Of a stretch of DNA of 64,000 nucleotides, positions 46,845 through 55,152 are shown piece after piece. The stretch covers positions 1,088,001-1,152,000 of the forward strand of contig OY970173.1 in NCBI GenBank assembly GCA_963707635.1, read 5' to 3'. The notes below the pieces were generated by a model. That model was not told the DNA's origin. It made no database searches and was given only the letters and a program-made list of their open reading frames with translations. The position numbers were made by a program, and so were the translations under genes. Source of the stretch: Candidatus Latescibacterota bacterium (lineage in GTDB: Bacteria; Krumholzibacteriota; Krumholzibacteriia; WVZY01; JAKEHA01). Position 1 is the stretch's first letter; each line of letters starts with the position of its first letter.

Positions 46845-46857
46845 TCGTTGCGTTGGA

Positions 46858-46881
46858 GTTCGAGTCCTGCCTGGGGAGCCA
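46858..46881 (+). repeat. tRNA 3'-end fragment (tRNA-Asn-like), left att site
   Basis: GTTCGAGTCCTGCCTGGGGAGCCA = T-loop, acceptor strand and CCA; no matching 5' half upstream. Confidence 0.8.
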
Positions 46882-47273
46882 TTCTTTCCCATACAAAGAA
46901 CTTCGCCTGAGAGCGGCTCGACGCCTCCTGGCGGCACGAGCGGGCAAGTGTACTTCAGTTCCGCGATCGGGTAGTCCACGTCGATGCGGCTGACGAACGA
47001 ACGAAGGAACGTCTTCTGCTCGGCGATGGAACCCTTCCGGAGGGTCTCGTGTAGATCCTCGACGTACCGGCGAACGGCCGCGCGGGGAAGAGCCTTGGGG
47101 GCGGGTAGCTGGGTGTTGGCCGTCAACTCGGCTTTCCGTTTCTCCAGTTGCTGCCGACTGGCGGTCAGTTCCCGCAGCCGCGGCGCGGCTTCGTCGAACG
47201 CAAGCTTCTCATCCTCGATGAGGCCGTAGAGCTTCCCGAGCCGGCGATCGGTGTCAACGAGTTGCCTCTCGCG
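46858..47273 (-). pseudogene. C-terminal remnant of a large serine recombinase
   Basis: RERQLVDTDRRLGKLYGLIEDEK...LEKRKAEL...IAEQKTFLRSFVSRIDVD...KNGSPGRTRT: coiled-coil tail reading antisense into the tRNA fragment; no catalytic domain. Confidence 0.75.
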
Positions 47274-48359
47274 GGAGAAGGGGCGATCTCCCAGATATTG
47301 TACTTGGCAGTAACGAGCCGACTCCTGGATGACCCAGTGTCGATAGCGGTCAAAGGGCCTTCATCGGGTGGAAAGTCCTACTTGGTGAGGCGGGTTCTCG
47401 ATTTCTTTCCGAAGAGCGCCTACTTTGCCCTTAGCGCGATGAGTGACAAGGCGCTCGCCTATTCCCAGGAACCACTGTCGCATCGCTTCCTCGTCCTCTA
47501 CGAGAGCGCCGGCTTGAATAGCGAGACCGCGACGTATCTTCTGCGGTCCCTGCTGAGTGAAGGGCACATCCGATACGAAACCGTTGAAAGCACCAAGAAC
47601 GGTCTCGAGCCACGTCTGATCGAGCGACCTGGGCCGACCGGCTTGATCGTGACCACCACTGCACTCCAGCTGCATCCCGAGAACGAGACTCGCATGCTCA
47701 GCCTCACGGTCACCGACAGCAGGGAGCAGACTAATAGCGTGCTCATGGCCATTGCAGATGAGGACAAGCCCGAGGTCGACATCACCGAATGGGGGGCCTT
47801 TCAGGAGTGGGTGGCGCAGGGGGGGACCCGGGTCATGGTTCCGTTCGGGAAACAGCTGGCTTCACGTATTCCACCAGTTGCGGTGCGACTGCGGCGGGAC
47901 TTCAAGATCGTTCTGACCTTGGTGCGTGCCCATGCGTTGCTTCATCGCGAGAACCGCTCGCGGAACCCGCAGGGGCGTATTGTTGCAGAACTCGATGACT
48001 ACCGCATCGTCCGTGAACTCACGGCCGCCTTCCTCGCGGAGGGCGCAGAGATGTCGGTACCCGAGACAGTCAGGGAAACAGTCCTCGCGGTGGAAGAACT
48101 CCTTGCGTCCCATCCCGAGGTGACCGTGAACGAAGTCGCCGGGCGACTCGGGCTCGACAAGTCCGCGGCGCTCCGACGCGTCAGGAATGCCATCCGCCGT
48201 GGCTTTCTGGTGAACCAAGAGGACCGGAAAAGCCGGCCCGCAAAGCTCGTCATGGGAGATCCACTGCCAGAAGCATGTTCCTTGCTCCCATCTGCCCGGG
48301 AGCTGAGCGGTTGCACGGTTGCAGAAGAAACTGCGGAAGGGGCACCGCATGACGACTGA
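47268..48359 (+). pseudogene. 5'-truncated primase-associated P-loop helicase/replication ATPase with C-terminal winged HTH
   Basis: LYLAVTSRLLDDPVSIAVKGPSSGGKS, LRSLLSEG.I.YET, IVTTT...HPENETR, RLRRDF; no credible start. Confidence 0.7.
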
Positions 48360-49812: not shown

Positions 49813-50523
49813 ATGACCTTGAAGAAACCATTCGTGGTTCCGCTCATTCTGACTTCAATCCTGGGTGCTCACTGGGCGCTCGCGCAGCACTTAAGCGCCG
49901 ATCCGACCGGTGGGGCGCGAGTGATCGCGATCGAGGAGTTGAAGAAACTGCCGGCCCGCGTTACTGCAGTTCCAAGCCATTCGCCTTTCTTTGTTTCTGA
50001 TCGCAAGCTTCTCGAATCGGCGACCCTGGGAGAGCCATTTGTTTTCTACTGGCCCGATAGCACGTTTCTGACCCATTACAAGAACGCGGAAGCGGGCCAA
50101 ATACTCCGGTATTTTCGGAAGAGTGTGCTCTTTCCCGTGCATGCCGGGGAACGGATGCTTGGAACCATTAGCGTTCAAGTGAATGAGAACGGAGTGTGGG
50201 TGACGGGACCCCGCACAGTAGGTGACCGCGTTGTGAATGCCCTGGAGGAGTGTGGCCGCACTGCTGCCGTCACTGCTGGCCAGAGGCTTTCAATACTCGA
50301 TACGGGGTTCGCGGGCAAATTTGGTGTTGTTGAGGATGAAACAAGAATCATTGCAATGATGCCACTAGACGAATGGACTCGCGAGCTTATTGAGTCTGCT
50401 ATTTCACCCAATGGAGAGAGCGCTTGGATCCTTCCTGAACAAGGGTTTCCAATCATCCAAGCGAAGGTGCGCGCCACCCGGGAGAGTGAACAGCTCCATC
50501 ATGAGCCAATCGACGATCGCTAG
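49813..50523 (+). CDS. Secreted protein, putative protease pro-domain-like partner
   Basis: AAGGA RBS, signal peptide, ATLGEPFVFY...VLFPV...TISV...GVWV. Confidence 0.7.
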   Translation: MTLKKPFVVPLILTSILGAHWALAQHLSADPTGGARVIAIEELKKLPARVTAVPSHSPFFVSDRKLLESATLGEPFVFYWPDSTFLTHYKNAEAGQILRYFRKSVLFPVHAGERMLGTISVQVNENGVWVTGPRTVGDRVVNALEECGRTAAVTAGQRLSILDTGFAGKFGVVEDETRIIAMMPLDEWTRELIESAISPNGESAWILPEQGFPIIQAKVRATRESEQLHHEPIDDR

Positions 50524-53386
50524 TCCGGTCAAGATGGTCGTTCGCTGTCGATCGCGTGCGCAATTGATAGCTCCTCTGGTCATTGCACTAGCGGTCGCCC
50601 CGAGTGTTGCGCGAGCTCAATTCAACATAATCTGCGGCGTAGTGTGGACACAAGCGATCCACCAGGAATGGGGCGAACCCTGGTGCACGTTTGCGTGTTT
50701 GGAGTTCGTGGCGAACGAGCTTCTCGGTTACGGTGGTGACCAGTGCGATTTTGTGGTCGAGGCCTGCGCCCGTATCCCAAAGCTAACATGCGATGGGAAC
50801 TGTTGCGGCACCTACTGCCATGGTTACTACTTGACCGGAAATGAGCTCAGCTTATTCATGGACTACGTAGGGTTCCAACGGCATGGTGGTGGCATGGTCT
50901 CATGGCAGTCGGGGCCGACCGCCACACCGTCCCAACTGTACGATGCCATATGTGACGAGAACTATCTGATTTCAGCACACAACGAGATGGGAAGTCCGCT
51001 TGGTCACGCCGTTGTGGTTTGCGTCTTCGATATTGATTCTAACGAGATCACAATAATGGACCCGTATTGGGGCTCTTACCAGCAGGAGATAACGTTCGCG
51101 GAGCTCAAGTCGGGTAGCTACCAAGGCGGGTTTGGTTTACCCATGATAGCGTTTCTCCGTGTAGGCTACTTCGACCCGAAATTCGTTGGCATTGATGACA
51201 TAACCAGGCCTTGGGTGGACGAGCACGTGCCCACCCAGTCGGTAACACTAAAGTACGGAGTATACTGGACCGCCGATCCGGATGATTCAACCTGCTTATA
51301 CATATCCGACAATCCATGGGGTCCCGTGCGCCGAGTCCTGGCGACCAAGCCTCTCAGTCAAGCGTTGCCGTACGGTGAGGAGGCGATTGTATCGATTACG
51401 GATGTCCTGCCATACGTTGAACACGCTTTTGTCCGCTATTTCCTAGATCACGGGCCCGGTGGGTTCGCGGCTCTCCGTTCGCCAGACGACCTCAAGAACT
51501 GCGTCAACAATCCAGTAGAGTTACTTGGGTTCAACGTGGAGCGAGACACGTTGGACGCGCCCGACTTGCTTTCCTTGGTGCCCTCCGGGCCCGATCCGCA
51601 GGTCGGCATTCGGCTAGTTTGGGAACTGTCTGATGATGACGCGATCATTGACTACTACAATGTCTATCGTCAGGAGGACCTCGAGTACAACCCTGGTTGG
51701 ATTTGGCTCGCCTCGGTGCCACGCGGAACGAGTAGTTTCGTCGACGACGTGAACATATTCACGGGTGTGAATTATACATATCGGGTCTCAGCGGCTCACC
51801 ATGGCGGGAATCCCTCCGCTGGAAACGGACGAAAGGGTATCTACAACGACTTCAGTGAGCCTATCACCGGGGTCGCAAAGATGGGGGAAATAGCGAACAA
51901 TGAAACGTGGTCCGGAAACGTGTTCGCGACCGGTGATATCACGGTTCAGAGCGGAAAGACGTTGACGATAGCCGCGGGAACCCATATCTGGATCTGGCCG
52001 GTCGACACAAGCAATGCCGGAGTTGATCACGACCGGGTCGAGATCAAAGTCGATGGGACGCTGGTAGCAAATGGGGCCACTGCAAGTCCGATCGTATTTG
52101 AATCTTGGAACGGGCAACCGCAGACAACGCAAGACTGGTGGGGCATTTTCGTGAACGCGGGTGGTGACGGCGCGTTCGAGCATTGTGCCATTCGGAATAC
52201 CCGGTGGGGTATCGGAGCCAACGCACCGATCTCCGTCGTCGGCTGCACGATCGAGTCAACAGCGTATAGAGGCATCAACATCGCATCGGCAGGCACCGTG
52301 ATCGTAGACAACACGACAATCCGGGGCCCAGAGTACGGAATCAACGCGTTAAATGGAACGAACCTCATCCTTTCGAACTCGACCATCGAGGACTGCTCAT
52401 CGTACGGAGTGGCCCTCTACAAGGGTTCAAAGCTCAACGCGACGGAAACCACCTTTGATGGCAACGACATCGGCTTGTATCTCGCGCGTGAGACGACAGC
52501 GTGGGTTAAGGGGACGGTCCATGATTGCACTTTCACCAACAACACCGACGGCATTTGGATCGACGATGTCGGGGACTCTTCGGTGGTCATCGACGGCTGC
52601 ACGATCGATGACAACACGACGAGCGGAATCTACATCGAGGACAATGGCGACGTATCGATTACCGGTAACACGATCACAGGCAGCGCGGCGGGTGTGTTCA
52701 GCTACAACAGCAACCCCTTGATTCGCTCCAGGAACACGATTCAATACAACACGATCGGGATCAAGTGCGACAACTACTCGGCGGCGGTGGTCGAGTCGTG
52801 CACTGTGACCCAGAACTATCGGGGGGTCTGGGTCGGATGGGAATGCACGACGGACCTGGGGAGCTGGGGCTCCGAGTCGAGTGGCCGCAATATCCTAAAG
52901 CCCAACACGGCGCGCTACGTCATGAACTTTTCGGGCTATCCCGTGAGTGCCCTTTGGAACTACTGGCCCACGAACCCGCCCACTAACTGTATCCCGGAAA
53001 GTGCCAAGTTCTACGGCCCCGTGGACGCGTCCTTCCCGCTCTGCACAGCACCCTCCCTGTCGCCGCTTGCATGGCAATTGCCGGCGCCGGACGGGGATGC
53101 GCCGGAGCGTTTCAGCCTGAGTCAGAATTACCCAAACCCGTTCAACCCAACGACAACAATTGCCTATCAGGTCCCGAGACCGGGAGGCGACGTGGATCTA
53201 GCGCTTTATGACGTGACCGGCAGACTCGTTGGCACGTTGGTTCGTGAACATAAGGTACCAGGGTCCTATGTCGTGACGTGGGATGGTCGCGATCGAAGCG
53301 GTGAGCCGGTGGCAACGGGAGTGTATTTCGTGAAGATGCGGGCGGGGTCGTTCGTGGAGACGAAGAAGATTGTGATGCTGAAGTAG
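50501..53386 (+). CDS. Secreted papain-fold (C39/C70-like) cysteine protease + FN3 + right-handed beta-helix + FlgD-Ig C-terminal domain
   Basis: Signal peptide; Q..(W)C.FAC, GHAVVV, IMDPYWG triad pattern; YNVYR...YTYRVSA; NosD-like G(I/V).I repeats; SQNYPNPFNP...GVYFVKM...KKIVMLK. Start is 50501 or 50534. Confidence 0.8.
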   Translation: MSQSTIASPVKMVVRCRSRAQLIAPLVIALAVAPSVARAQFNIICGVVWTQAIHQEWGEPWCTFACLEFVANELLGYGGDQCDFVVEACARIPKLTCDGNCCGTYCHGYYLTGNELSLFMDYVGFQRHGGGMVSWQSGPTATPSQLYDAICDENYLISAHNEMGSPLGHAVVVCVFDIDSNEITIMDPYWGSYQQEITFAELKSGSYQGGFGLPMIAFLRVGYFDPKFVGIDDITRPWVDEHVPTQSVTLKYGVYWTADPDDSTCLYISDNPWGPVRRVLATKPLSQALPYGEEAIVSITDVLPYVEHAFVRYFLDHGPGGFAALRSPDDLKNCVNNPVELLGFNVERDTLDAPDLLSLVPSGPDPQVGIRLVWELSDDDAIIDYYNVYRQEDLEYNPGWIWLASVPRGTSSFVDDVNIFTGVNYTYRVSAAHHGGNPSAGNGRKGIYNDFSEPITGVAKMGEIANNETWSGNVFATGDITVQSGKTLTIAAGTHIWIWPVDTSNAGVDHDRVEIKVDGTLVANGATASPIVFESWNGQPQTTQDWWGIFVNAGGDGAFEHCAIRNTRWGIGANAPISVVGCTIESTAYRGINIASAGTVIVDNTTIRGPEYGINALNGTNLILSNSTIEDCSSYGVALYKGSKLNATETTFDGNDIGLYLARETTAWVKGTVHDCTFTNNTDGIWIDDVGDSSVVIDGCTIDDNTTSGIYIEDNGDVSITGNTITGSAAGVFSYNSNPLIRSRNTIQYNTIGIKCDNYSAAVVESCTVTQNYRGVWVGWECTTDLGSWGSESSGRNILKPNTARYVMNFSGYPVSALWNYWPTNPPTNCIPESAKFYGPVDASFPLCTAPSLSPLAWQLPAPDGDAPERFSLSQNYPNPFNPTTTIAYQVPRPGGDVDLALYDVTGRLVGTLVREHKVPGSYVVTWDGRDRSGEPVATGVYFVKMRAGSFVETKKIVMLK

Positions 53387-53398
53387 GGCGGTGCGTAG

Positions 53399-53962
53399 AT
53401 GATGGACTCAAGGAGACTTCTAGCACTGGCGTCGGCGTGGGTTGTCCTAACTGGGGCCGCCTCGGCACAGACACCAGGGAAGATCTCGATCATGATCCGT
53501 GGCACTGACGCGTCAGTGCACGCGGGCGAAAAGACGACTCTTGGGCAGTGCTACACGGTTCAGTATGCGCTACCGGACGATCTTACGAGCCAGCAGGTCG
53601 AGCGTGCGGTGTTGGAATTGTATGTCGATGTTCGAGCGAAGACCCGGGAGGACTACATCAACGAGGCTCCGATTCTTGAGGTCTACGCGCCGACGGAAGC
53701 ATTCGCAGGTGGCGTCGACCTGAAGAAGGTCGACATCGCTACGCGAGCTGGTCGACCGATCGCTCTTGGCGCGAAACGTCTTGTGCGCATCGATGTAACA
53801 AGAGTCGTTCGCGCGCATGCAAGCAAGACCTTGGCTAATTATGGGCTCGTGATCGGATCACTATCAGGAATGCGCGAAGGCGACTTCACGATTGTTGCAG
53901 ACATGTTTCCTGACGGGGCGATAGGACGGCTGAACATCTACACGAGTGATCCGGTCAAGTGA
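53399..53962 (+). CDS. Small secreted DNRLRE/CBM96-like jelly-roll protein
   Basis: Signal peptide; RAVLELYV, IDVTRVVRA...NYGLVI. Confidence 0.65.
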   Translation: MMDSRRLLALASAWVVLTGAASAQTPGKISIMIRGTDASVHAGEKTTLGQCYTVQYALPDDLTSQQVERAVLELYVDVRAKTREDYINEAPILEVYAPTEAFAGGVDLKKVDIATRAGRPIALGAKRLVRIDVTRVVRAHASKTLANYGLVIGSLSGMREGDFTIVADMFPDGAIGRLNIYTSDPVK

Positions 53963-53994
53963 CGACGGCGCTCCGGCGCGACGACGTCTCTCTG

Positions 53995-54020
53995 GAAGGG
54001 CCGCCTTCGGGTGGCCCTTC
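53995..54020 (+). terminator. Hairpin terminator of the cargo operon
   Basis: GAAGGGCCGCC-TTCG-GGTGGCCCTTC. Confidence 0.75.
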
Positions 54021-54142
54021 TACGTTGCTGGGCAAGTGCCGCGAAACGTGCATAGGGACCCCCAATGCGGTTGCACGGTTGCGCCTACGTCGGCGGAGCA
54101 CGGACCTAGAGAGGGATCGCGATCCTCAAAGTTCTTGATATG

Positions 54143-54160
54143 GTCCTACCCGGGGAGCCA
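54143..54160 (+). repeat. tRNA 3'-end fragment, right att site
   Basis: GTCCTACCCGGGGAGCCA vs GTCCTGCCTGGGGAGCCA at 46864-46881. Confidence 0.75.
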
Positions 54161-54176: not shown

Positions 54177-54707
54177 TCAGGCGGCGTCCGATAGAAAGGC
54201 ATCCACGGCCGTTTCGACCGCGCTCCTCGACAGGCTGGGATACTTCGCGTATGCGGAATCGGGGATGGCCGCTACCAGGGCTCGGAATCGCGCGGGATCC
54301 ACCATGCCGCTGCGAATGAACTCCCGCGCATCTTCCAGATCGCGCTGGAACCCACGGACGACCTTGGATAGAAGCTGCGCATAGGGATCGTAGTGGTAGA
54401 ACGTGATCGAGCCCACGGTATCGATGAACGCGTGGCGATCCGCGCTGCCTTTCAGCGGCGGCACGAAGTCTTCCGGACGGGCGAACTCGACGTTGATATT
54501 GAGCCGCTCCTTGATCTCCTGAATGCCGCGAAATACGACCTCCTGGTCGGAGAAGAGATCCACATCGATGGATGATCGTCGCCAACCGAGGTAGACGGCG
54601 GTCCCCCCACCCACCAGGTAAACCGCGAACGCACGTCGATGCGGCGCCGCTCGCGCCAGCTCCTTCATGAGCGGCACAAGGCGCTCACGGGTCATCTCTT
54701 GGCGCAT
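54177..54707 (-). CDS. DUF6036/AbiEii-like nucleotidyltransferase, putative toxin
   Basis: YLVGGGTA...RRSSIDVDL, LSKVVRGFQRDLED. Confidence 0.8.
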   Translation of the reverse strand: MRQEMTRERLVPLMKELARAAPHRRAFAVYLVGGGTAVYLGWRRSSIDVDLFSDQEVVFRGIQEIKERLNINVEFARPEDFVPPLKGSADRHAFIDTVGSITFYHYDPYAQLLSKVVRGFQRDLEDAREFIRSGMVDPARFRALVAAIPDSAYAKYPSLSRSAVETAVDAFLSDAA

Positions 54708-54714
54708 GCGATCC

Positions 54715-55152
54715 TCACTCCAGGCGGGCGGCTGAGCACGCATCCGCGAACGACTCGGCCTGCCGCAGATAGGCGAGATAGCGCGCATGCGCCAGGCCGC
54801 CGGCCGTTCGCTCGAGCAGGCGATAGAGTCGCACGTCCGCATCCGCGAACACGTCGCGAGGAACGGGCACGCCCTCGCGCTTGAGGCGCGGAGCGGAGAG
54901 CGACACCAGCAGGCTCTCGATCGACTCTTCGCCGGCCGCGAGGGAGGCCAGCCCTGCGTCGACGATCTCGCCGCCGGGCAGGGCAAGCGCCTTGAAGTCG
55001 GGGGCACCGAAGCGGACCTGAATCCAGCGTCGGATGGCGCCCTGACAGGCCACGCGTTTCCGCGCCCCCGGGCTCATGCGCGCGGCTCGCGCGCGGCCGC
55101 CGCGGCGGCCGTGGGAACGAAACTGCTCTCGAACGGATTCGGGGAGCTTCAT
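54715..55152 (-). CDS. Putative antitoxin / DNA-binding partner
   Basis: Basic GRRGGRARAARMSP.ARK.VA..GA..RW N-terminus; LPGGEIV..GL..L..G domain; 7 nt upstream of the NTase. Confidence 0.7.
   Translation of the reverse strand: MKLPESVREQFRSHGRRGGRARAARMSPGARKRVACQGAIRRWIQVRFGAPDFKALALPGGEIVDAGLASLAAGEESIESLLVSLSAPRLKREGVPVPRDVFADADVRLYRLLERTAGGLAHARYLAYLRQAESFADACSAARLE

Follow-up and report, generated by a model that had tools for sequence, protein, structure and literature searches.

The three-gene cassette

This study examined a 64,000-nucleotide (nt) stretch, hereafter the window, from the genome of a Candidatus Latescibacterota bacterium (contig OY970173.1), focusing on a cassette of three genes, here named A, B and C (Table 1). 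The three genes lie on the same strand, with gaps of 10 nt between A and B and 12-15 nt between B and C, and each begins with a hydrophobic stretch that was judged by eye to be signal-peptide-like, in agreement with an earlier sequence-only reading of three consecutive signal-peptide genes. The motifs named in that reading (TLGEPFVFY, LFPV, TISV, WCTFAC, GHAVVV and IMDP) were all found in the genes. All frames are intact, and the Cys, His and Asp of B are kept. A second assembly holds a protein (P0005) that is 99% identical over the head region of B, and gene B is called alone there. An assembly frameshift splitting one A-B gene was rejected from the sequence and gene calls, since B has its own signal-like stretch, stands alone in the second assembly, and ten other loci are split as well. 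The single terminator said to end the cassette held up in part: a hairpin is visible, though it is without a T-run and was not called in a terminator scan.

Table 1. Features of the cassette and of the island around it (window positions).
Feature	Position	Strand	Remarks
Gene A	49813-50523	+	236 residues; secreted (signal by eye), free-standing, pro-domain-like, unnamed family
Gene B	50534-53386	+	950 residues
B signal peptide	50534-50617	+	residues 1-28, by inspection
B papain-like (C70/C39-like) head without pro-region	50618-51190	+	C51, H158, D176
B FN3-like stretch	51566-51883	+	by eye; similar stretch in G069 relative
B beta-helix region	51902-52933	+	over Pfam cut-off; common to a metalloprotease paralogue elsewhere in the genome
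B FlgD-Ig / type IX secretion system (T9SS) type A sorting domain	53129-53386	+	FlgD_ig over Pfam cut-off
Gene C	53399-53962 (alternative start 53402)	+	187 residues; secreted (signal by eye), DNRLRE-like
11-bp GC-rich hairpin, UUCG loop	53995-54020	+	possible terminator; read from sequence, weak U tract
Left att-like repeat	46857-46881 (46864-46881 pairs with right repeat)	+	tRNA 3'-end copy, 2 mismatches; directly after queG
Open-frame fragment	46882-47360	-	without Pfam match
ATPase-like and helix-turn-helix (HTH) open reading frame (ORF)	47148-48359	+	weak AAA and HTH matches
Right att-like repeat	54143-54160	+	identical to last 18 nt of intron-bearing tRNA-Asn (genome ~246.0-246.3 kb, minus strand)
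16-nt perfect direct repeat	48307-48322 and 54067-54082		5760 nt apart; brackets cassette
Gene pair with DUF6036 nucleotidyltransferase	54177-55152	-	just beyond right repeat

Predicted fold and family of gene A

Gene A had been read as pro-domain-like, and its predicted model favors this, as the best structural alignment was with the proregion of prostaphopain B (PDB 1X9Y), a modest match; other comparisons gave further faint echoes of such a likeness. No family in Pfam or NCBIfam matched A, and the model PF14731 (Staphopain_pro) gave no match for A, for 71 relatives or in the host genome. A library search with A retrieved 78 proteins, mostly free-standing and 200-300 residues long, of which 70 were non-spurious at 50% clustering. 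Eight long library matches considered as A fusions, comprising seven GAF proteins and one Ig-repeat protein, were rejected as spurious. Word-index homologue searches gave a single relative for A and, for B, an almost identical copy, and nothing more; two metagenome scans, as well as plasmid searches with the B head or A-like proteins, gave no matches, and a genome scan returned one locus already among those found. A and its relatives begin with hydrophobic signal-like stretches (by eye), and a lipobox-like motif was seen in none of 64 A rows.

In the closest relative of A (P0004) the C-terminal 42 residues are repeated at the N-terminus, which suggests, on sequence, a tandem duplication with deletion. 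A-like domains are also arrayed with, or fused to, two further kinds of unnamed secreted module (L084:201-3497, L019:7919-11032, L021:2256-3644, L023:10136-12578, L136:5168-5884). One of these presumably resembles the pro-regions of S8 peptidases and the other the OB/TIMP-like domains of matrixins, and one module of the latter kind precedes an M10 peptidase gene. These bacteria may thus hold several kinds of detached pro-domain.

The papain-like head of gene B

The absence of a pro-region from the large gene, as first noticed, was confirmed, the catalytic Cys being residue 51, 22 residues past the likely cleavage site. The head scored 15.1 bits on Pfam Peptidase_C70, under the cut-off of 19, with a weak match to C39_2 as well, and a relative in G079 reached 37 bits, over the cut-off. 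Among five aligned heads the catalytic Cys and His (C51 and H158 in B) are invariant, the D-P of B D176 is found in three, and the Gln of the oxyanion hole varies. The head model is poor, with a pLDDT of 38, and its best fold matches are papain-like proteases, none of them reaching E 0.001. Two matches in the phylum to the B head alone were dismissed as heads of this kind, being RimK-operon peptidases. In three linked proteins (L040:560-7221, L139:7182-10475, L142:7046-10321) a papain-like head and a gingipain-type C25 domain both precede the C-terminal domain (CTD), giving two protease domains in one cargo.

Linkage of A with papain-like heads across the phylum

We surveyed 208 genomes of the phylum from both sides of the pair. 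From the protease side, Pfam C70 gave 14 matches, and among the 10 whose neighbors were read, A was found only by a secreted protein with a CTD tail, whose gene is preceded by three A-like genes that the first profile missed (E 1.1) and that were recognized by motif. From the A side, iterated profiles gave 30 matches in 20 genomes, then 45 in 30, grouped into 39 loci. At 12 of these the next gene after A encodes a papain-like head, 20 are without a papain-like neighbor and 7 lie at a contig edge. The linked loci, which are partly kin and so not independent, are the window, three in G079, and one each in G033, G037, G039, G069, G090, G040, G174 and G072, and fall into four families. The last A profile was seeded with many of the 39 loci; it added 13 that had not been seen before, 4 of them linked, 5 unlinked and 4 undecidable. 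As a check on circularity, an independent profile built from A and 55 library proteins only was used; of the 16 A-like pieces at linked loci, it recovered 15 with E values no worse than 2e-6, the best background value being 0.45 among 26,696 sequences. A two-row profile of the head found eight places, and of the six outside its seed four had A upstream, one was at a contig end and one (G057) was a broken gene without A.

A and the head are separate genes in the window and at 10 other loci. In 10 split loci the two genes are -14 to 81 nt apart and the catalytic Cys falls at residue 29-65, leaving no pro-region in cis. At the remaining locus (G072:C16), an A-like gene slips by one base within a G run, and its second half then stands in the frame of the head; by eye this half is like the A relatives in G062 and G063, and the independent profile gave it no score. 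Either a natural pre-pro-enzyme bearing an assembly error or a fusion in decay may lie here. At an orphan A in G079 (C41) the remnant of a CTD tail follows, suggesting from the sequence a deleted partner. The host genome has one A and one head among its ~83 CTD-like ORFs. We conclude that A and the papain-like head form a real, conserved two-gene module. A neighborhood survey of all three genes had been called for, and what it returned was the pairing of A with pro-less heads at 12 loci in four families.

The tail of gene B, gene C and the type IX secretion system

The tail of B was originally described as FN3, beta-helix and FlgD-Ig domains. Pfam supports the last two, whereas FN3 was seen by eye and gave no Pfam match. 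The sorting domain scored 26.7 against a cut-off of 27 for Por_Secre_tail in Pfam, and 35.1 against 23 in NCBIfam (TIGR04183). With its signal peptide and type A CTD, B is likely a T9SS cargo, because SprA and PorV of the host both pass their cut-offs. The same genome has ten PorV-family matches, at least six of them over the cut-off alone or by frame, which, with the CTD-like ORFs, marks the host as the carrier of a large predicted set of T9SS cargo outside Bacteroidota.

The DNRLRE-like character of C was partly supported, with a match to the model NF033679 (E 2e-5) whose 24.6 bits stay under the cut-off of 34. A paralogous cassette in the host (L001:6921-11402) begins with a small secreted gene; next comes a gene that joins an HExxH metalloprotease-like head to the beta-helix/CTD tail seen in B, and a C homologue follows. 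C lies directly after a CTD-tailed gene at 18 of 27 loci, and five of the other nine have less than 200 nt of upstream sequence. The 11 upstream genes scanned all have beta-helix and CTD, with heads of S8 (six), C25 (four) and HExxH (one) type. Fourteen extended C loci showed neither A nor a papain-like head, and no C-like gene was found downstream of the head in the three linked loci inspected (G039, G069 and G079:C14). Since C follows the beta-helix/CTD tail whatever the head, it belongs to the tail, perhaps as a ligand-binding protein or tail chaperone, and the three-gene system at first envisaged was rejected. The cassette, which lies on a decayed low-GC island, is thus chimeric: one module is 'A + papain head', the other 'beta-helix-CTD + C'.

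The island and its mobility

Between the flanking att-like repeats the GC content is 0.577; the genome as a whole has 0.662. The source tRNA-Asn(GTT) of the repeats (L002:10032-10275) lies ~890 kb from the island and carries a group I intron after position 35 (Rfam RF00028, 95.5 bits). A second, intron-free tRNA-Asn lies at genome position 1664314, and two more copies of the last 9 nt of the source tRNA occur 1.2 and 2.6 kb downstream of it, suggesting serial integrations. The 64 kb hold no tRNA gene, so the element is not now seated in its tRNA. Spread by tRNA-targeted elements, as proposed beforehand, shows only in the att-like tRNA 3'-end repeats of this one locus; no match to an integrase was found among the island ORFs scanned. 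The claim that the mobility genes are broken likewise stands in part: the island ORFs have weak AAA/HTH matches or none, and the minus-strand fragment, which we take to resemble the coiled-coil end of a large serine recombinase, has no match. A perfect direct repeat inside the island brackets the cassette, and small gene pairs like the DUF6036 pair of the window adjoin several A loci.

Comparison with known systems

The nearest likeness is to prostaphopain B (MEROPS C47), with whose proregion the A model aligns best and in which the partner is also a papain-fold cysteine protease; inhibition of staphopain by this proregion was reportedly described by Filipek in 2004. The systems differ in that the staphopain pro-region is in cis, whereas A has a gene and a signal peptide of its own (the in-frame junction at G072 apart). 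Again, A has no Pfam match, the B head is C70/C39-like with no C47 match, and B is a multi-domain T9SS cargo of a Gram-negative environmental phylum.

SpeB of Streptococcus pyogenes (C10) has its own propeptide, whereas the partner of A is without a pro-region. Spi, described as 'a propeptide analogue' of SpeB in the passages available from PMC2873492, is likewise a free-standing propeptide look-alike beside a papain-fold protease gene (PMC2873492, PMC3462683), a likeness that here involves 12 linked loci and a predicted fold. The same passages have Spi and the lipocalin-like staphostatins acting, as is thought, in the cytoplasm, and Bacteroides C10 genes travelling on mobile elements (PMC3462683, PMC2873492); A differs from Spi in being secreted, upstream and similar to the staphopain pro-region. 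In the potempin/KLIKK peptidase pairs of Tannerella forsythia, the text seen of PMC9890683 places the potempin genes immediately upstream of their secreted cognate peptidases, as A is of B. Potempins, however, are outer-membrane lipoproteins of 98-132 residues, whereas A has ~230 residues, no lipobox-like motif and a pro-domain-like predicted fold.

The WC-x-A, H-x-V and DP motifs of the B head are common to Peptidase_C70 and the 'papain-like cysteine protease family protein', and secreted Streptomyces and Bacillus members score on the B head profile. B differs in being under the C70 cut-off, Cys-rich and joined to a tail of beta-helix and T9SS domains. On plasmids of Streptomyces and Bacillus, each secreted papain-like protease gene examined (L192:2977-3876, L193:2995-3630, L194:2967-3839) is followed after 5-26 nt by a gene for a secreted hypothetical protein; in the 3 of 56 plasmid records opened, the Bacillus gene alone scored on A, at a weak 9.5 bits against 5.2 for the best shuffle. 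The literature covered (titles and abstracts, few subscription papers) held no account of a free-standing staphopain-type pro-domain or of the A-head pairing.

Proposed mechanism and alternatives

We propose, with a probability of roughly 60%, that A is a detached pro-domain that would bind the pro-less head of B and hold it inactive until T9SS export, upon which the export of B or the degradation of A would free the enzyme. Both proteins would be exported to the periplasm, where A would bind the catalytic head as the staphopain pro-region does in cis, keeping it folded and inactive. A would be periplasmic because it has neither CTD nor lipobox-like motif, and it would be left behind or shed as B is exported. 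What the sequences show is the gene anatomy, the predicted fold of A, the catalytic Cys and His in the head, a T9SS tail with its machinery in the host, the recurring order of A then head, and the one in-frame junction; from these we infer that A binds B, inhibits or chaperones it, and stays behind or falls off.

Several findings weigh against it. Of the 32 decidable A loci, 20 have no papain-like neighbor, the four closest relatives of A are unlinked, none of the 71 library relatives scanned has a papain-family domain, and orphan A genes are found behind glnE, within a DUF58/BatA operon, or joined to other domains. The persistence of these orphans, some of them in conserved places, together with tandem A copies (two or three) at several loci, would fit a stand-alone periplasmic inhibitor or immunity protein directed at mislocalised or foreign papain-like proteases and dispensable for the folding of B. 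We consider this unlikely, though deserving of attention, as the partner heads are without their own pro-region, unlike SpeB, and the in-frame junction in G072 fits a pro-enzyme; its precedents are Spi and the potempins, as presented in the text seen of PMC2873492 and PMC9890683.

The modest structural match, and the finding of A next to other small secreted domains or in fusion with them, as well as following an M10 metalloprotease gene, could also be explained if A did not act on the active site, being a co-exported scaffold or substrate, or one of the small secreted genes gathering before T9SS cargo genes. Such a role is rather improbable, since the linkage is specific to papain-like heads, no A having been found in the 14 extended C loci, whose 11 scanned cargo genes have S8, C25 or HExxH heads, and the proregion of a papain-fold protease is indicated by four separate methods. 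The broken look of the island mobility genes, and the frameshifts or deletions at related loci (G037, G057, G072 and G079:C41), would suit a decaying passenger with an inactive B head or an unexpressed cassette, which the intact frames, the kept Cys/His/Asp and the 99% identical protein of the second assembly make very improbable.

A bolder extension of the detached pro-domain proposal is doubtful and is offered tentatively: that the unnamed family consists of free-standing staphopain-type pro-domains serving as obligate, interchangeable caps and folding helpers, stripped at the T9SS, with export activating the enzyme without propeptide cleavage. The split would let the head shuffle onto adhesive tails, and the pairing may reach the secreted C70-like proteases of Bacillus and Streptomyces.

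Significance

A split-zymogen mechanism is plausible for the A-head module, which is here joined to a second, generic module. Cognate inhibitors beside secreted proteases are an established theme, which bounds the novelty, and what is new here is the form of protease control by a cognate neighbor. If true, it would provide a function for an unnamed protein family, carry the staphopain pro-region fold well outside the staphylococci, and represent a natural split zymogen activated through secretion, not cleavage.
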